From a virus, in IMG/VR virus record IMGVR_UViG_3300045988_063657, positions 1 through 5,804 of that record: DNA of 5,804 bases; one strand, 5' to 3'. Both the position numbers and the translations under genes were made by a program. The notes below the pieces were generated by a model. That model was not told the DNA's origin, did no database searches, and saw only the letters and a program-made list of their open reading frames with translations. Positions 240-5,804 of this stretch are shown here, one piece after another; within the stretch, counting starts at the first letter, position 1; each line of letters opens with the position of its first letter.

Positions 240-359
240 ATGGCTCACAGAATGCCGGTCAACCCGAAAAAGGACAAGCGAGTGTTTACGAACACCGCGA
301 AGAAAACCAAGAAAATCAATGTCAATCCGAAGCCGTCGCGTGGCGGGATCCGACTGTAA
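240..359 (+). CDS. VP8: Small basic DNA-binding/packaging protein (gokushovirus VP8, phiX174 J-like), 39 aa
   Basis: MAHRMPVNPKKDKRVFTNTAKKTKKINVNPKPSRGGIRL has 12 Lys/Arg in 39 aa. The C-terminal RGGIRL matches the RGGIR(L/M) tail I recall for gokushovirus ORF8 proteins. AGGAGG 228..233 lies 6 nt before the ATG. Confidence 0.75.
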   Translation: MAHRMPVNPKKDKRVFTNTAKKTKKINVNPKPSRGGIRL

Positions 360-456: not shown

Positions 457-720
457 ATGGAATATCAGGTTTACGCAATCAAAGATGAACTGGCAGGGAC
501 CTTCGGCAATCTCATGGTGGTCAACGAGAAGGTGGCCGAACGGACGATGAAGTGGATGGCCCAGGAGATGGAGAAGGCCGACTGCGAGGATAAGCGGGTC
601 TATCTGCTGGGCAGCTATGACAACGAAACCGGCCTGATCAGGCCAGAGCAGCTGCCGCGCCTGATGTACAATCTCGAGCTGATGAAGAAGGAGCAGACGA
701 ATGGGAGTCAGAATCTTTAA
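457..720 (+). CDS. VP5: Gokushovirus VP5-like nonstructural protein, 87 aa
   Basis: GGAGGA 445..450 lies 6 nt before the ATG. The N-terminal YQVYAIKDELAGTFGNLMVVNEKVAERTM and the later YLLGSYDNETGLI...PRL follow the pattern I recall for ORF5 proteins (V.D.K...F..P......A.R.F ... L..G.FD..TG). The position just upstream of VP3 is typical. Confidence 0.65.
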   Translation: MEYQVYAIKDELAGTFGNLMVVNEKVAERTMKWMAQEMEKADCEDKRVYLLGSYDNETGLIRPEQLPRLMYNLELMKKEQTNGSQNL

Positions 721-1198
721 GCCCTACGAGGACGAAAAACCGGCTGCACTGCCGAACGACCCGGGAAACCGGTTTGAGCCGGAGTACAAAGAGCGCTATG
801 ATGACCGCGGACAGCCGTACCTTGAAAAGGTCGGCGAGGTGGACACATACGAAAAAATCCAGAGCTACAAGGACGAATGCGACGTCATGGCTATCCTGAG
901 CCGGTATGCTGCCGGAGACGAAAATGTCTTGGCAAAGCCGGGCTGGTACATCGACACCAGCCGTCTGCCGCAGACCTACACGGAGTATATGAACCTCATG
1001 AACGAAAAGCGGGAAGAGTTTAATCAGCTGCCGCTCTCCATCCGTCAGGCATTCGGCATGAACTTCGAAAACTGGATGGCAACGGCCGGTGAACAGGAGT
1101 GGCTGGAGAAAATGGGCATCAAAATTCAGCAGAATGCACAGGAAAAGGAAGCTGCAGCAACCGAAACCATTGTGCAGAAAGGAGAAAATAAAGAATGA
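701..1198 (+). CDS. VP3: Internal scaffolding protein VP3, 165 aa
   Basis: AAGGAG 688..693 lies 7 nt before the ATG. It overlaps the VP5-like ORF by 20 nt, and its TGA overlaps the VP1 ATG (ATGA at 1195..1198). Motifs QSYKDECDVMAILSRY and FNQLPLSIRQAFGMNFENW match the conserved core of gokushovirus scaffold proteins. The C-terminus is acidic. Confidence 0.8.
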   Translation: MGVRIFKPYEDEKPAALPNDPGNRFEPEYKERYDDRGQPYLEKVGEVDTYEKIQSYKDECDVMAILSRYAAGDENVLAKPGWYIDTSRLPQTYTEYMNLMNEKREEFNQLPLSIRQAFGMNFENWMATAGEQEWLEKMGIKIQQNAQEKEAAATETIVQKGENKE

Positions 1199-2856
1199 AC
1201 CGCAATGCTGAACAGCACTATTCGCAGGTGCCTCATGCAAACGTGCCGCGCGCACGCTTCAAGCGGGACTATTCCTTGCTTACCACGATGAACGAAGGCG
1301 ACCTGGTCCCGATCTACTGCGATGAGGTATTGCCGGCCGACACGGCAAAAATCGATCTCAATGCTCTGATGCGCATGAGCACCCCGCTGTTTCCTGTTAT
1401 GGATAACTGCTACTGTGACTTTTACTTCTTCTTCGTACCGTCGCGCTTGCTGTGGGAGCACTTCGAAAACCTGATGGGGCAAAACGACTCTACTTTCTGG
1501 GCAGAGCCTGTGGAGTACACAACTCCTAAAACGACTGCACCGTCTGGCGGCTGGAACGTAGGAACGCTGGCAGATTACTTCGGGATCCCGACCGGGATAG
1601 CAAACCTTCAGGTGAACTCGCTGCCGTTCCGGGCATATGCCAAGATCTGGAACGAATGGTTCCGAGACGAAAACCTGCAGCAGCCTGTCACGATGAGCAA
1701 GACGGACGCAACCACGACCGGCAGCAACACCGGAACAAACCTCACAGACGCAGAAGCAGGCGGTCTGCCGCTGAAAGTCTGCAAGTACAAGGATTACTTC
1801 ACAAGCTGCCTGCCGAATCCGCAAAAAGGAAACGCGGTAACACTGCCGATGACTGGTAACGCACCGATAGAAGCATATCTCGATACAGACATGACAAAAG
1901 AAGCAGGCTGGTTAAAACAAAAATCGAACGGACACGTAAGCTACCCATGGGCATGGGACGAAAGCGAAAAAGCAACGCTAATGCAAAACGGCTCGATGGA
2001 AGGAGTCATCTTAAACGATGACTATTTATTTAGCGACCAATACGGCAACGAAACAAGTGATAAGGCATACATCGGCGCAAACCTGAGCAAAATACAAGCA
2101 ACAACCATCAACGAACTCCGTCAGGCCATCGCAGTGCAACACATCCTGGAACGCGATGCACGAACCGGCACCCGGTACAAAGAGTACCTGCAGGGAGCTT
2201 GGGGCGTGACCAGCCCGGATGCACGTCTTGACCGGTCGGAGTACATCGGCGGCTACAGACTGCCGATCAACATCAATCAGGTTATCCAGACGTCGGCAAC
2301 CGACACGACCAGTCCGCAGGGCAACACAGCAGCGTTCTCCATGACCACAATGAGCCGAAACATGGCTACCTACTCAGCAACGGAGCACGGCTTTATCATC
2401 GGTCTGGCAGCGGTCAGAGTTGATCACAGCTATCAGCAGGGACTGCCTCGTATGTGGACGCGCAGCACACGCTTTAGCTACTATGATCCGATGCTGGCAA
2501 ACCTGGGCGAACAGGCGGTTCTTAATCAGGAGATCTATGCACAGGGCAACGCACAGGACGAAGAAGTCTTTGGCTATCAGGAAGCCTGGGCCGATTACAG
2601 ATACCACATCAACATGATCACCGGAGAAATGCGCAGCACCTACTCTAAAACTCTGGACGCATGGCACTACGCAGACAAATACGATAAATTGCCCAAACTG
2701 TCCAGCGACTGGATCAAAGAAGGTACGGAAAACATTGACCGGACGATCGCAGTGCAAAGCGAAAAAAGCCGCCAGTTTATCTGCAACTTCTATTTTGACC
2801 AAACCTGGACGCGAGCGATGCCGATCTACAGCCTGCCGGGCCTTGATACGATCTAA
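1195..2856 (+). CDS. VP1: Major capsid protein VP1 (phiX174 F-like), 553 aa
   Basis: The largest ORF. N-terminal HYSQVP...PRARFKRDYSLLTTMNEGDLVPIYCDEVLPADT, DYFTSCLPNPQKG and TINELRQAIAVQHILERDARTGTRY are hallmark Microviridae capsid motifs. AAAGGAGAAA at 1178..1187 lies upstream. Confidence 0.95.
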   Translation: MNRNAEQHYSQVPHANVPRARFKRDYSLLTTMNEGDLVPIYCDEVLPADTAKIDLNALMRMSTPLFPVMDNCYCDFYFFFVPSRLLWEHFENLMGQNDSTFWAEPVEYTTPKTTAPSGGWNVGTLADYFGIPTGIANLQVNSLPFRAYAKIWNEWFRDENLQQPVTMSKTDATTTGSNTGTNLTDAEAGGLPLKVCKYKDYFTSCLPNPQKGNAVTLPMTGNAPIEAYLDTDMTKEAGWLKQKSNGHVSYPWAWDESEKATLMQNGSMEGVILNDDYLFSDQYGNETSDKAYIGANLSKIQATTINELRQAIAVQHILERDARTGTRYKEYLQGAWGVTSPDARLDRSEYIGGYRLPININQVIQTSATDTTSPQGNTAAFSMTTMSRNMATYSATEHGFIIGLAAVRVDHSYQQGLPRMWTRSTRFSYYDPMLANLGEQAVLNQEIYAQGNAQDEEVFGYQEAWADYRYHINMITGEMRSTYSKTLDAWHYADKYDKLPKLSSDWIKEGTENIDRTIAVQSEKSRQFICNFYFDQTWTRAMPIYSLPGLDTI

Positions 2857-2868
2857 GGGGGTGCAGAT

Positions 2869-3795
2869 ATGGCACTCGCATTAGGGGCAGCGATAAAAGC
2901 CGGACTGGGCATAGCAAGCACACTGGCAAGCATCTACAGCACTATCAGAGGGAGCACATCGAGCGCACGACAGCAAGGCACGATGCAAAACACTATACAA
3001 AGCGGTACGACCATGGGAAGCACCGCGCAGGACACCACAAGCACGGGAGTAAGCACTCAGACAGGCAACACCGGAGCACTGGGCAATCTACTGTCAACGG
3101 CGCTTGGAACGCCGACCGGCAATAACGCCGGAGACGCCGCACAGTTTAACGCCGGACAAGCACAAACGGCCAACAACCTTCAGGGAGCACAATGGAATCT
3201 GGGCAATCTCATCAATATGGGCAGTATGCTGGCATCCAACGCGATGAGTGCAGCAAGCCAAAGCAGCGCAATGCGATACAACTCCAAAGAGGCCAAAGCT
3301 CAAAGAGACTGGCAAGAACGCATGAGCAGCACCAGCTACCAGAGAGGGGTCAAAGACCTCGAAGCAGCGGGGCTTAACCCGGTACTGGCAGCATACAACG
3401 GCTTCGGAGCACAAACGCCGTCAGGCGGCTACGGGAGCCTTGGCGGGGGGCAGACCTTCGGTCATACTCAGGCTATGGCAATACCGGCCGCAAAGAATGC
3501 GAACATGCAAGCCATGTACGATTATGGAAACAACACAGCCCAGATCGTGGAGAACTTCCAAGCAGCAATCAACAGCGCAAAACAAACGTCAGACTATCGA
3601 ACGGTTGAACACCTGGAACAGATGCAGCAGCAGACCGTAAGCAGCAGCGCAAAGACCGTGGGCCAGCTGGCAGAGGCCGGCAGAAGCAGCAGCGCTCAGA
3701 CCTCGACCACCAAAGAAAACACCGACAGCAAACAGGTCAACGTAGGCGGTGAAGTGTCCGGCGAGTGGACAAACAAAAAAGACCGCAGAAGATAG
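2869..3795 (+). CDS. VP2: DNA pilot / minor capsid protein VP2 (phiX174 H-like), 308 aa
   Basis: It lies immediately after VP1. AGGGGGTG 2856..2863 is 5 nt before the ATG. The protein is low-complexity (Gly/Ala/Ser/Thr/Gln/Asn-rich) with a central SYQRGVKDLEAAGLNPVLAAY motif typical of gokushovirus VP2. Confidence 0.85.
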   Translation: MALALGAAIKAGLGIASTLASIYSTIRGSTSSARQQGTMQNTIQSGTTMGSTAQDTTSTGVSTQTGNTGALGNLLSTALGTPTGNNAGDAAQFNAGQAQTANNLQGAQWNLGNLINMGSMLASNAMSAASQSSAMRYNSKEAKAQRDWQERMSSTSYQRGVKDLEAAGLNPVLAAYNGFGAQTPSGGYGSLGGGQTFGHTQAMAIPAAKNANMQAMYDYGNNTAQIVENFQAAINSAKQTSDYRTVEHLEQMQQQTVSSSAKTVGQLAEAGRSSSAQTSTTKENTDSKQVNVGGEVSGEWTNKKDRRR

Positions 3796-3824
3796 TTGAC
3801 AAACACAGAAAAGAGGTGTATATT
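3796..3824 (+). promoter_or_regulatory. Sigma70-type promoter for the RHH-VP4 unit: TTGACA (3796..3801), 17 nt, TATATT (3819..3824)
   Basis: Perfect -35, exact 17-nt spacer, 5/6 -10. It starts 1 nt after the VP2 stop and lies about 40 nt upstream of the RHH ATG. It is paralogous to the promoter at 5425. Confidence 0.75.
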
Positions 3825-3847
3825 ATGAGTGTACCAATCACACACTT
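3813..3847. promoter_or_regulatory. Operator-like repeats over the -10 and transcription start: two direct RGTGTA copies 13 bp apart plus one inverted copy
   Basis: GGTGTA at 3815..3820 and AGTGTA at 3828..3833 (GTGTA starts at 3816 and 3829). AGTGT 3828..3832 and ACACT 3842..3846 form an imperfect palindrome, TGAGTGT/ACACTTA. The same motif and spacing recur at the 5425 promoter. Confidence 0.55.
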
Positions 3848-3864
3848 AAGTTAGGAGTAAAACT

Positions 3865-4068
3865 ATGAAGAGCCAGATTGCAAAGAGAATCAACATCAAT
3901 TTGACCGACAGAGAGCAAATAGCACTGGAAAACCTCGAACAAGAAATGGCAAACAGAGGGTGGAAAATGACCACCAGCGACATTATCAGAGAAGCAATAG
4001 TAAACTACTGCGAAAAGGAAACGGGATACACATTCGCCAATGAGTGGAAGCTCAGAGAAACGAAGTGA
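3865..4068 (+). CDS. Ribbon-helix-helix (CopG/Arc/MetJ-type) DNA-binding protein, 67 aa
   Basis: AGGAG 3853..3857 lies 7 nt before the ATG. KRININL has the alternating pattern of a beta-strand. It is followed by helix TDREQIALENLEQEMANRG, a turn, then helix TSDIIREAIVNYCEK. This closely parallels my recollection of pMV158 CopG (KKRLTITLSESVLENLEKMAREMGLSKSAMISVALENYKK). Confidence 0.7.
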   Translation: MKSQIAKRININLTDREQIALENLEQEMANRGWKMTTSDIIREAIVNYCEKETGYTFANEWKLRETK

Positions 4069-4089
4069 CCGGGGAGACCCGGCCACTTC
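4062..4089 (+). other. Hairpin overlapping the RHH stop codon, with a GAGA tetraloop
   Basis: GAAGTG 4062..4067 pairs with CACTTC 4084..4089. CCGGG 4069..4073 pairs with CCCGG 4078..4082. There is one A/C mismatch (4068/4083), and the loop is GAGA 4074..4077. A T7 run sits at 4109..4115, 20 nt downstream rather than adjacent. Confidence 0.55.
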
Positions 4090-4136
4090 TGCAACATTTA
4101 TCCATAGGTTTTTTTGAGCAAGAGCTAAATTTTGTG

Positions 4137-4181
4137 TCAATGGGCCCCTATAACATCAAGAGGGTTATAGGGGCCCATTGA
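4137..4181. repeat. Perfect 18-bp inverted repeat (hairpin) with a 9-nt loop, between the RHH and Rep genes
   Basis: TCAATGGGCCCCTATAAC 4137..4154 is the exact reverse complement of GTTATAGGGGCCCATTGA 4164..4181. The loop is ATCAAGAGG 4155..4163. No T-tract follows. Confidence 0.9.
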
Positions 4182-4202
4182 GGAAAGGCGCAGCGAAACT
4201 AT

Positions 4203-5312
4203 ATGTCATGTACGAGACCGCTCATCAGAATACCGACAAGCGACGGAGATTTCCGCGTAGTAAGCCTGAAAGGATACTTAAACCACAGCGGAAAGAACCT
4301 GGAATTTATCGCGGATAAAGAGCGTCAAGATCTGAACGAGAAAAAAATCAAAGAGCTGATAAAAACTCAAGAAGCGCAGCTGCTACCGTGCGGACAATGT
4401 CCAGGATGCAAAATGGCAGCTGCGTCCAGCTGGGCAAACAGAATGGAGCTAGAGCTGCCATACCATCAAAACGCATGGTTCATCACGTTTACATACGATG
4501 ACGATAATGTGCCATACCGGATGACATGGGACGAAGGGACCGGCGAAGTACTAGTAGAAAATTACAGTCTACGATATGAGGATATGCAAAAGTTCTGGAA
4601 ACGCCTGAGAAGGTACATGGATTATCACAAGATAAACAACGGAAAACTGATGTACTTCCAATGTGGTGAATATGGCGGAAAAACACACAGACCACATTAT
4701 CATGCAATAGTTTACGATATACCGTTCAAAAAAGACGAGTTGAAGATCTACAAAAAGAAAAACGGCGCTGTATATTACAACGTCGATTGGATAACGGACC
4801 TGTGGGGAATGGGTCATGTGGTCATCGCAGCAGCAGAGTGGAAAGCGATGGCATACACAGCAAGATACACCACAAAGAAGGTTTATGGAAAGGAAGGAAA
4901 AGAATTTTACAAAGAGCTGGGAATCTTACCTGAAAAGTGTAACATGAGCAAAAGACCAGCGATCGGAGCAAAATACTTTGAAGAACATAGCGCAGAAATC
5001 TATGAAAAAGACAAAATCCAGCTGAAGAACGGAAAAGTTTGTAAACCGCCGAGATATTTTGATAAGCTATACGATGCACAGTGTCTAAAAAAACCACTCT
5101 CAGACAAAGAGGTAGAAGACATTGAGCTAGTAATAGAAAAAGCCGAGTCCGATGAGCTCAAAGCGATAAAGAGAAAACGTCGTAAGTTAGCAAATGACGC
5201 ACTCTTCGCCAGGCTCAAGCAGAACAACGGCTTAACCATGCAAGAGTATTATAGCAAAGAGGAACAGAAAATACAAGACAGGTTCAGAAAGCTAATCCGG
5301 GAAGAAATCTAA
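4203..5312 (+). CDS. VP4: Rolling-circle replication initiator VP4 (HUH endonuclease, phiX174 A-like), 369 aa
   Basis: Motif 1 is FITFTYDD (from 4479). The HUH motif is RPHYHAIVY (CAT TAT CAT at 4695..4703). The double-tyrosine motif is YTARYTTKK (Y218 at 4854, Y222 at 4866). CGQCPGCK followed by SWANR is typical of microvirus Rep. The SD is weak or distant (GGAAAGG ends 14 nt before the ATG). Confidence 0.92.
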   Translation: MSCTRPLIRIPTSDGDFRVVSLKGYLNHSGKNLEFIADKERQDLNEKKIKELIKTQEAQLLPCGQCPGCKMAAASSWANRMELELPYHQNAWFITFTYDDDNVPYRMTWDEGTGEVLVENYSLRYEDMQKFWKRLRRYMDYHKINNGKLMYFQCGEYGGKTHRPHYHAIVYDIPFKKDELKIYKKKNGAVYYNVDWITDLWGMGHVVIAAAEWKAMAYTARYTTKKVYGKEGKEFYKELGILPEKCNMSKRPAIGAKYFEEHSAEIYEKDKIQLKNGKVCKPPRYFDKLYDAQCLKKPLSDKEVEDIELVIEKAESDELKAIKRKRRKLANDALFARLKQNNGLTMQEYYSKEEQKIQDRFRKLIREEI

Positions 5313-5335: not shown

Positions 5336-5371
5336 AGACGGCGTGGCTACGAAAGGCTACGCCGTCTTCTT
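5336..5371 (+). terminator. Putative intrinsic terminator after VP4
   Basis: AGACGGCGT 5336..5344 pairs with ACGCCGTCT 5359..5367 (9 bp). In RNA the stem extends by G:U, G:C, C:G and U:G pairs to a 6-nt loop, ACGAAA. It is followed by a pyrimidine-rich CTTCTTC rather than a clean U-tract. Confidence 0.45.
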
Positions 5372-5376
5372 CGTAC

Positions 5377-5424: not shown

Positions 5425-5453
5425 TTGACAAATGTACAATTTAGGTGTATAAT
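5425..5453 (+). promoter_or_regulatory. Consensus sigma70 promoter: TTGACA (5425..5430), 17 nt, TATAAT (5448..5453)
   Basis: Both hexamers are perfect and the spacing is optimal, in an intergenic region. It shares TTGACAAA and AGGTGTATA.TA with the 3796 promoter. Confidence 0.8.
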
Positions 5454-5480
5454 AAAGGTGTAGAAAGGAAGTGTACAAAG
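5429..5480 (+). repeat. Four tandem 13-bp iteron-like units, consensus nARRTGTAnAAWn
   Basis: The units are caaATGTAcaatt (5429..5441), tagGTGTAtaata (5442..5454), aagGTGTAgaaag (5455..5467) and gaaGTGTAcaaag (5468..5480). Seven of 13 positions are invariant, and the TGTA cores are exactly 13 bp apart. The array spans from inside the spacer through the -10 to the ATG of the next ORF. Confidence 0.65.
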
Positions 5481-5481
5481 C

Positions 5482-5649
5482 ATGGAAAACCTATACAAAG
5501 ACCTCGACACCGAAACGCTCAACTGGATGGACTACAGATATGAACATTGCGACGGCGCTTGTGAAAAATGTCCGTGCCACGATGTAAGCTATTATTGCAG
5601 CTACATCCACGACCAAGTCAGAAAAGAGCTTAACCGGCGAGGGGAATAA
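5482..5649 (+). CDS. Hypothetical 55-aa Cys/His-rich protein, putatively metal-binding
   Basis: MENLYKDLDTETLNWMDYRYEHCDGACEKCPCHDVSYYCSYIHDQVRKELNRRGE carries the cluster H-C-x3-C-x2-C-x-C-H-x5-C-x3-H. It lies between a consensus promoter and an intrinsic terminator. AAAGGAAG 5464..5471 is 10 nt before the ATG. It is below the size cutoff of the ORF track. Confidence 0.55.
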   Translation: MENLYKDLDTETLNWMDYRYEHCDGACEKCPCHDVSYYCSYIHDQVRKELNRRGE

Positions 5650-5652
5650 ACC

Positions 5653-5699
5653 AAAAAACGTGAGGTTGACGAAAAACAGCCTTGCGTTTTTTTTTTTTT
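5653..5699 (+). terminator. Intrinsic terminator: A6, hairpin, T13
   Basis: The stem pairs 5659..5668 with 5677..5686 (10 bp, including 3 G:U wobbles) around an 8-nt loop. A6 (5653..5658) lies upstream and an uninterrupted T13 (5687..5699) directly downstream. It starts 4 nt after the stop of the Cys-rich ORF. Confidence 0.6.
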
Positions 5700-5804
5700 G
5701 GTAAAATTGACATAGAGAGCCGGCGCCAGAAAACGAAAGGAGAAAGCACTGCCTCCGGCGCCGGTGATCTGTGCTTCAATTCTATTTTTACAAATCTGAA
5801 AAGA
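5686..5804. repeat. Terminal direct repeat, copy 2 (circular-assembly overlap)
   Basis: Identical to 1..119. Confidence 0.95.

Follow-up and report, generated by a model that had tools for sequence, protein, structure and literature searches.

A candidate ribbon-helix-helix regulator upstream of the replication initiator in a clade of gut gokushoviruses

Described systems closest to the VP2-VP4 locus

Microviruses are the usual textbook example of a minimal phage. In the prevailing view, promoter and terminator strengths hard-wire the expression of their genes, and no dedicated transcription factor is known to have been described in the Microviridae. Here we consider a gene for a 67-amino-acid (aa) protein that lies between VP2 and the replication gene VP4 in IMG/VR virus record IMGVR_UViG_3300045988_063657. 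The whole stretch of 5,804 nucleotides (nt) was analysed and is called the window. It is a circular gokushovirus genome. The window resembles the canonical Microviridae (phiX174 and the gokushoviruses of Chlamydia and Bdellovibrio) in its core genes, VP1-VP5 and a VP8-like gene, and in its constitutive sigma-70 promoters and leaky terminators. We argue that the 67-aa protein has a ribbon-helix-helix (RHH) fold and that it is probably an autorepressor of two early promoters, P1 and P2, limiting expression of the initiator (Rep) and of a cargo gene. We put the probability of this autorepressor reading at roughly 0.55. The RHH fold and the repressor logic are familiar; it is their presence in a microvirus that would surprise specialists. 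A survey of microvirus accessory genes reports methyltransferases, lysis/peptidase genes and small unknown proteins, and mentions no regulator (PMC9239249). Our full-text literature search found no report of an RHH protein or a repressor in microviruses.

The nearest functional comparison is the Pcr-copG-repB module of plasmid pMV158. In both cases a small RHH gene (45-67 aa) lies directly upstream, on the same strand, of an HUH initiator gene behind one strong promoter. The whole RHH domain of CopG aligns with the window protein, with KRLTITL in CopG against KRININL in the window and G-L-S-K-S against K-M-T-T-S. By analogy the expected logic would also be the same, an autorepression that limits Rep. 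The components differ. The window Rep is VP4 (PF23343/PHROG 942) and not RepB. The window has a structured spacer of 134 nt with a covarying hairpin between the two genes. The operator of CopG is a 13-bp pseudo-palindrome at the -35 box, whereas the candidate operator in the window consists of direct GTGTA repeats over the -10 box and the start site. These repeats are also found on a second promoter, and no equivalent of the antisense RNA II was found. A first-pass annotation of this DNA had called the locus a plasmid-style copG-rep module. The layout justifies the comparison, but the plasmid part of the name does not survive: there is no homologue in the plasmid database PLSDB, the Rep is of the microvirus type, and no antisense-RNA promoter is present. 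What we describe is an unannotated, clade-specific RHH regulator module of gut gokushoviruses, functionally closest to Pcr-copG-repB and not built from orthologous parts.

Other RHH systems are more distant. Arc and Mnt of P22, ORF56 of pRN1 and the SvtR-type proteins are also tiny RHH repressors, carried by mobile elements, whose targets are early or replication promoters. In this group, ORF56 lies upstream of the pRN1 replication protein and is among the weak PDB/NCBIfam matches of our protein. However, none of these has a significant sequence relationship to it (E 0.03-0.5), they belong to other replicon types, and their operators are palindromic. The omega protein of pSM19035 and ParG act as RHH dimers on short direct or inverted repeat arrays over several promoters, and they coordinate copy number with other functions. 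They share with the window family a flexible tail for protein-protein contacts. Omega reads a contiguous 7-bp heptad, whereas the window has a 5-7-bp core every 13 bp. The variable tail of the window family is C-terminal and not N-terminal as in omega and ParG, and there is no ParA partner. If the autorepressor reading is true, even single-stranded DNA (ssDNA) phages of 5.7 kb hold their replication initiator under feedback control. With a single 67-aa protein and two sites of about 50 bp, the circuit is tiny and readily testable.

The 67-aa gene and its fold

Judged by its conservation, the 67-aa open reading frame (ORF) is a real gene under selection. A search of 5.8 billion proteins returned 29 clusters with 61-97% identity to the 67-aa protein. 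All 29 are on contigs of at most 5.9 kb, and the longest contigs are mostly 5.5-5.9 kb. We compared 41 related loci, made up of four GenBank records and 37 IMG/VR contigs (L001-L041). The order VP2-ORF-VP4 is kept in 41/41, with VP4 identities from 96% down to 36%. The median ratio of nonsynonymous to synonymous substitution rates (dN/dS) is 0.42, and 230/230 informative pairs lie below 1. Over the first 16 codons the proportion of nonsynonymous differences (pN) is 0.18 against 0.79 for synonymous ones (pS), so synonymous sites are nearly saturated. Since pN is low while pS is near saturation, the N terminus appears constrained as protein and not as DNA. The first-pass annotation had a promoter right after the VP2 stop, the 67-aa ORF behind it and VP4 as the next gene on the + strand, and all three are where it put them. 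The promoter-RHH-Rep layout is kept in every relative. It had also placed the RHH gene outside the canonical gokushovirus set, in agreement with outgroup gokushoviruses, where VP2 directly abuts VP4 with no gene between.

The closest GenBank records are the human-gut gokushovirus KX513873 and Microviridae from pig faeces, at about 86% identity. The four GenBank relatives annotate VP1-VP5 only, and the 67-aa ORF is left unannotated in 4/4. The RHH gene has been missed by the current annotation of gut Microviridae.

RHH proteins are obligate dimers that insert a two-stranded antiparallel ribbon into the major groove of DNA. The textbook RHH layout read from this ORF by the first-pass annotation holds at the level of the family. 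By itself the window protein is sub-threshold: single-sequence searches of Pfam, NCBIfam and PHROGs gave only sub-threshold RHH matches, such as DUF6290 (E=0.031) and RHH_1 (PF01402, E=0.088, 13.2 bits against a cut-off of 20.5 bits). A profile search of 1.8 billion representatives enlarged the family to 38 clusters. RHH_1 is matched at E<0.1 by 16/41 family members, and the member P0036 exceeds the curated cut-off at 22.4 bits, covering profile positions 3-39 of 39. P0036 is in turn tied to the window protein via the family profile (E=3.7e-14). When the wider family profile is compared with PDB sequences the top match is TTHA0139 (E=0.0036), and next are ParD antitoxins and ORF56. The narrow-family profile gave calmodulin-type noise only in the same comparison and was set aside; the wider profile is required.

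The resemblance to CopG that the first-pass annotation noted is real, but it is distant and holds only at the superfamily level. In a BLASTP comparison the window protein and CopG share 40% identity across 42 aa (pairwise E=9e-5), in an alignment that runs from the strand through helix A and the turn to helix B. An hhalign comparison of the family profile with CopG gives E=5.4e-5 and a probability of 67%. The CopG sequence used in these comparisons was confirmed against PDB chains 1b01 and 2cpg. The layout is a strand at about residues 7-13 (KRININL), helix A at 15-30, a turn K-M-T-T-S-D and helix B at 37-53. This is the strand-helix-helix pattern of the RHH superfamily, with the strand K-R-I-N-I-N-L-T, two helices and a turn before the second. 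An AlphaFold2 monomer (mean predicted confidence, pLDDT, 65.6) has helices at 15-30 and 37-53 and a disordered N terminus, as would be expected of a model of half an obligate dimer. A Foldseek search of this monomer against the PDB found nothing significant; NikR, ParD2, CdbA and Arc appear only at E>1. R8, N10 and N12, together with K7, L13 and T14, are invariant in 30 close homologues and at least 90% conserved family-wide, and the helices and tail vary. R8, N10 and N12 are the residues predicted to face DNA.

Taken through these transitive profile links, the window protein belongs to a new, microvirus-restricted RHH family and is not a CopG orthologue. The examined members are small proteins of the microvirus family, apart from P0064, which is marginal (E=3e-4) and adjoins a Prim-Pol gene; the family search also matched the 1,115-aa P0052. 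We consider it highly probable that the fold is RHH. One can imagine that the protein is antitoxin-like or an anti-defence protein unrelated to phage gene regulation, or that the ORF is spurious. It does have weak matches to DUF6290, CcdA and ParD-type RHH antitoxins. However, there is no toxin partner, VP2 and VP4 flank the gene at every locus, and PADLOC gives one stray 15.8-bit match only. The spurious ORF is ruled out by the purifying selection and the strict synteny. We regard this group of explanations as scarcely credible.

Some members of the family have unusual histories. The contig L023 is 96% identical to the window in VP4, 89% in VP2 and 87% in VP1, and just 57% in RHH. Together with L014 and L058 it makes a set of otherwise near-identical genomes in which RHH identity to the window is 57-67% while the flanking VP4 and VP2 are at 94-96% and 85-89%. 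The promoter and the hairpin that border the diverged gene are almost invariant in these three. Divergence between such conserved non-coding borders looks like cassette-like replacement. The gene has also been duplicated. L037, a contig shared with L112, has two tandem RHH genes (3001-3204 and the next ORF). P0040 is a single protein of 125 aa, a fused tandem RHH. Modelled at low confidence (pLDDT 53.8), it shows the strand-helix-helix unit two times over, and a Foldseek search of the model was uninformative.

Two promoters and their GTGTA repeats

P1 starts on the base right after the VP2 stop (Table 1). It is one of only two sites in the genome that match at least 11/12 positions of the promoter consensus, the other being P2. 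Shuffled sequences give 0.05 such sites on average, and two or more in 3/2000 shuffles. Both hexamers of P1 are near-invariant in 37 unique relatives, and the spacer is variable. The conserved bases extend outside both hexamers: GGTGTATA(T/A)TATG(A/G)GTGTA and much of the following 15 nt are at least 90% conserved in relatives. Mean pairwise identity across 32 unique relatives is 0.70 from the VP2 stop to the RHH ATG, against 0.50 in the RHH coding sequence, 0.48 at the end of VP2 and 0.55 at the start of VP4. Shuffled leaders form RNA hairpins just as stable as that of the real leader (z=+0.32), and because of this the constraint looks to be at the level of DNA.

A short ORF in the leader must be noted. 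It occupies 3826-3855 behind GAGGTG (ATG AGT GTA CCA ATC ACA CAC TTA AGT TAG, encoding MSVPITHLS) and overlaps the candidate operator. It is open in relatives, where it ends at or overlaps the RHH Shine-Dalgarno or start codon, and in L025 it is fused in frame to RHH. Its third codon positions are invariant, which is why its constraint looks to be at the nucleotide level. It would be translated from read-through transcripts only.

The candidate operator is a paired direct repeat, GTGTA-N8-GTGTA, with a 13-nt period. It occurs three times in the window (3816, 5445 and 5458) against 0.01 expected, and 0/200 shuffles reach three. Each of the three falls on the core of either P1 or P2 and keeps one and the same register relative to the -10 box. 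At P1 there is also a partial inverted copy, ACACACT at 3840-3846, and several relatives have a perfect GTGTA-N7-TACAC. At P2 the repeats keep the 13-nt phase: a degenerate ATGTA at 5432-5436, then GTGTA at 5445-5449, 5458-5462 and 5471-5475. In relatives P2 reads TTGACA-A-GTGTA-N8-GTGTA(TAAT)-N8-GTGTA, which spans from just past the -35 box to the start site. The relatives have paired repeats at P1 and P2 and none elsewhere in their genomes.

The repeats and the RHH gene occur together. An 18-mer from P1 was found in 55 stretches of IMG/VR, and contigs of about 4-7 kb account for 51 of these. An RHH-family ORF starts 29-35 nt after the 18-mer on 50/51 such contigs, the exception being the 4.3-kb L088. 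A sample selected by VP4 gives the same picture. RHH is present in every locus with VP4 at 47% identity or above and with the upstream region present, and nearly all of these have the paired repeats; L135, a basal RHH-bearing genome, is without the paired repeat. The 45 outgroup loci (VP4 identity 33-42%) have neither RHH nor paired repeats, bar one stray repeat pair.

P2 drives a different gene in different relatives. The slot behind it is hypervariable, with unrelated small ORFs behind the same repeat-bearing promoter (L001-L039), and in some genomes it is missing. In the window it holds a Cys-rich ORF (YEHCDGACEKCPCHD). This ORF recurs at 72-74% protein identity in two distant microviruses that have no RHH gene, MG945136 and MT135258. 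Recurrence in genomes otherwise so distant implies exchange by recombination. In these two RHH-less microviruses the promoter before the same cargo is TTGACT...TACAAT and has no GTGTA repeats.

We propose the following scenario. A dimeric RHH protein would be made from the strong sigma-70-type P1, which would also transcribe VP4 through the structured 134-nt spacer. The N-terminal strand (K7 R8 x N10 x N12 L13 T14) would read the RGTGTA repeats on the -10/start regions of P1 and P2. Rising levels of the protein would then block RNA polymerase from the two promoters. This would give negative feedback on the RHH level and on Rep dosage and would shut down the cargo gene, while the structural promoter, an extended -10 box that is repeat-free, would stay active. 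The outcome would be dosage control or an early-to-late switch, with a logic like that of CopG at Pcr or omega at several promoters. DNA binding, operator identity, repression and co-transcription are all steps that we infer from sequence. Co-transcription of RHH and VP4 from P1 is most likely, because neither a promoter nor a canonical terminator lies between them: the interval 4069-4202 has no promoter of at least 9/12 (its highest-scoring site, at 8/12, overlaps the start of VP4), nor was a canonical + strand terminator found between the two genes.

Several points weigh against the autorepressor reading. The co-occurrence of RHH and repeats comes from a single clade, which is effectively one evolutionary event and weak as statistics. 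The DNA-reading strand is invariant, which leaves no covariation with the repeats to exploit. A 13-bp period places successive dimers on different faces of the helix, which is unusual for RHH arrays; the known operator periods are 8 bp for MetJ, 7 bp for omega and about 11 bp for Arc. The repeat overlaps the -10 box and the start site, and part of its conservation may be promoter function. Unrelated Clostridia promoters also contain the P1 19-mer GGTGTATAATATGRGTGTA, about as often as chance would predict. We found no terminator between VP2 and P1, and for this reason transcripts of the structural genes should read through to VP4. Read-through from the structural operon is thus a further route to VP4, one that would dilute control specific to P1. 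Finally, the helices and tails evolve fast compared with the neighbouring genes, and some tails resemble that of SSB (the protein that binds single-stranded DNA), which together hint at a protein-protein function.

The overlap with the promoter cores raises the question of whether the repeats are the RHH target at all. They could instead belong to the promoter or to initiation, or be bound by VP4 or a host factor. RHH would then bind elsewhere, for example at TTGTGTCA or the hairpin beside it, or it would steer packaging or a stage switch like phiX174 C and A*. The repeats do sit on the -10 box and start site, the GTGTA motif occurs in bacterial promoters, and TTGTGTCA beside the hairpin resembles the repeat. 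It is also general knowledge that some plasmids and geminiviruses have rolling-circle Reps that bind iterons close to the Rep promoter itself. However, the outgroups have a homologous VP4 and the same hairpin element and no repeats, which means that the repeats track RHH, and neither VP4 nor the hairpin. Nor could an invariant reading head recognise the hairpin stem, which covaries freely. The P2 repeats also reach past the positions constrained by promoter function. We consider it improbable that the repeats are not the target.

The Clostridia matches deserve a comment of their own. The P1 19-mer has 25 matches in 185,579 species genomes, none of them near microvirus genes. Nine of the 25 are one orthologous promoter, and several others are ordinary TTGACA-17-TATAWT promoters. 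In the nine, which are Eubacteriales/Clostridia metagenome-assembled genomes (L173, L176, L182, L185, L187, L188, L191, L193 and L194), GGTGTATAATATGRGTGTA is the -10/start region. It follows a TTGTGACCAAATCAC box and lies upstream of a gene opening MKALKLNKDNFD. These matches are probably chance plus shared descent, and they show that the sequence works as a Clostridia promoter core. We rejected them as evidence of host origin, as they occur at about the chance rate.

Tails, hairpins and the rest of the genome

The C-terminal tails of the family fall into classes. The window protein has the conserved GYTFANEWK class; its tail GYTFANEWKLRETK is conserved within its sub-clade, and the protein ends ...NEWKLRETK with no LPF tip. 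Other members have very short tails, and a third class is acidic and ends in LPF or LPY. The acidic tails include EEEDLPF (KX513873 and many others), EEDELPF, DDDDLPY and DDDDDLPF. Sister proteins with such an end are found in L001 (5273-5485), L014-L018, L020, L085, L091 and L195 (505-849). The second of the two tandem RHH genes in L037 ends NDDLPF. An acidic tract followed by a terminal (I/L)PF, the mark of an SSB C-terminal tip, is thus absent from the window protein and present in sisters only. In Gram-positives the SSB tip DDDLPF is the docking peptide for SSB-partner proteins (PMC5531588). The tails suggest that the DNA-bound RHH protein also contacts host proteins, at least in sister phages. 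The SSB-like tail would also point to a Firmicute host, and the sigma-70 consensus of the promoters and the strong Shine-Dalgarno sites would agree with such a host.

One can therefore imagine that RHH is mainly a DNA-tethered replication adaptor whose variable C-terminal tail recruits or diverts host proteins. In sister phages it would engage proteins that bind the SSB tip (PriA, RecQ/RecJ-type) and would aid replication of the replicative form or complementary-strand synthesis. The many sister proteins ending in an acidic tract plus LPF/LPY fit this, as do the tandem pair with its NDDLPF end, the much faster evolution of tail and helices than of the DNA-reading strand, and the position of the gene next to Rep and a conserved hairpin that is a possible origin. 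Against it, the window protein is without the LPF tip and many members are nearly tail-less. The repeats lie exactly on promoter cores, which is a better fit to occlusion of RNA polymerase than to recruitment at an origin. We think an adaptor as the main function unlikely, though still a serious rival, and the adaptor and repressor roles are not mutually exclusive. A combined scenario would be the first dedicated regulatory circuit seen in the Microviridae: one RHH protein would read the 13-bp-period GTGTA repeats of P1 and P2 and so couple Rep dosage and cargo to its own level, and interchangeable tails, including SSB-tip mimics, would engage host replication proteins. This is a doubtful proposal at present. 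If it is true, transcription control is linked to replication in a 5.7-kb ssDNA phage.

The spacer between RHH and VP4 folds far better than its shuffles (z=-5.7). Its main element is the 18-bp hairpin that follows TTGTGTCA (Table 1). The loop is ATCAAGAGG, and TCAAGA within it is invariant. Among 20 distinct relatives, 14/18 pairs carry double changes that compensate each other, with 95.8% of cells paired. This level of covariation is reached by 0/500 shuffles, and no slid register comes close. The TGTCA-stem-TCAAGA element, noted in L042 at 955-1009 as well, is also found in RHH-less outgroups (L136-L169), where it lies immediately after VP4, whereas in the RHH clade it lies before VP4. Its presence in RHH-less outgroups means that it is older than RHH and independent of it. 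It probably serves as an origin or nick site whose place relative to Rep has changed. An HUH nick-site hairpin, or an origin for the complementary strand, would be expected to combine a covarying stem with an invariant loop. An RNA element setting the RHH:VP4 ratio is an equally good candidate. No Rfam family matches the hairpin region. The phiX174/pC194-type nick motif CTTGATA has one match in the genome, at chance level and inside VP1. Read as its reverse complement, ATCAAG in the loop matches CTTGAT, the nick core of phiX174/pC194; so short a match allows no interpretation and is perhaps a coincidence.

The other hairpin, over the RHH stop, recurs in some relatives with a different sequence and is absent where the spacer is short. 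On the minus strand it (4089-4062) is the sole terminator-like feature. There is no conserved minus-strand promoter for an antisense RNA in 4069-4330; a minus-strand TTGACA at 4142-4137 is lost in relatives, which have CTGACA. VP4 is without a well-placed Shine-Dalgarno (4179-4205). GAGG and AAAGG lie about 20 nt and 14 nt 5' of its ATG, right after the big hairpin, and this arrangement suggests low or structure-dependent translation of Rep.

The absence of an antisense promoter bears on lifestyle. The first-pass annotation extended the pMV158 analogy to a restrained or persistent, plasmid-like mode of replication. RHH would then be a plasmid-type copy-number controller, and the phage would persist as a restrained episome in pseudolysogeny or a carrier state. 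The architectural analogy to Pcr-copG-repB is all that speaks for it, and Rep feedback could in principle cap copy number. Nothing else agrees. A tblastn search of the RHH protein against the 72,556 plasmids of PLSDB gave no match with E<0.9. A protein-pattern search of one genome per species, 185,579 species in all, found no RHH relative and no prophage or episome, and the P1 DNA motif found no relative in those genomes either. Searches based on VP4 or RHH turned up no stripped-down replicon. Every homologue with long enough flanks (L001-L041) is a microvirus genome with VP1, VP2 and VP4. VP1 is in every locus of both the RHH- and the VP4-based samples; VP2 is missing from just a few loci, which are cut or divergent. 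There are no partition, integrase or toxin genes. The persistent mode is unsupported, given no plasmid or bacterial-genome homologues, and we consider the episome very improbable. A lytic early-to-late or dosage switch explains the same layout equally well, and the present evidence is silent on a plasmid-like or persistent lifestyle.

Bases 1-119 repeat exactly as 5686-5804, and this terminal redundancy of 119 nt makes the genome a circle of 5,685 nt. The circle was opened within a non-coding region upstream of the structural genes, and all genes are coded on the + strand.

Table 1. Coordinates of genes and other features in the window
Feature	Position	Strand	Details
VP8-like basic protein	240-359	+	39 aa; PHROG 10695
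VP5	457-720	+	
VP3 scaffold	701-1198	+	
VP1 capsid	1195-2856	+	Pfam Phage_F E=8e-163
VP2	2869-3795	+	stop TAG 3793-3795; PHROG pilot/minor protein matches
Promoter P1	3796-3824	+	-35 TTGACA 3796-3801, 17-nt spacer, -10 TATATT 3819-3824; 11/12
Candidate P1 operator	3815-3846	+	RGTGTA at 3816-3820 (over -10) and 3829-3833 (predicted start), 13 nt apart
Shine-Dalgarno AGGAG	3853-3857	+	7 nt 5' of RHH ATG; TAGGAG/AAAGGAG position kept in relatives
RHH gene	3865-4068	+	67 aa; opening MKSQIAKRININLTDRE
G+C-rich hairpin over RHH stop	4062-4089		12 bp; no + strand T run, not a canonical terminator
TTGTGTCA and 18-bp hairpin	4132-4181		TTGTGTCA invariant, then perfect hairpin, arms 4137-4154 / 4164-4181, 100% complementary
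VP4, HUH rolling-circle initiator	4203-5312	+	Pfam PF23343 E=3.5e-15; PHROG 942 replication initiation protein E=2e-98
Hairpin after VP4	5336-5375	+	arms 5336-5347 / 5356-5367, then T-rich sequence; in relatives then CTTTTCATT
Promoter P2	5425-5453, with repeats to 5475	+	TTGACA-17-TATAAT; 12/12
Cys-rich cargo ORF	5482-5649	+	55 aa; behind P2
Likely terminator, hairpin and 13-T run	5653-5699		followed by the extended -10
Extended -10	5699-5707		TGGTAAAAT

The hairpin after VP4 is likely the terminator of the P1 unit, judging from its T-rich continuation. The stretch 5653-5707 is likely a terminator-promoter junction that heads the structural genes. In relatives its extended -10 box is TGGTAAAAT, TGCTAAAAT or TGCTACAAT, in each case free of GTGTA repeats.

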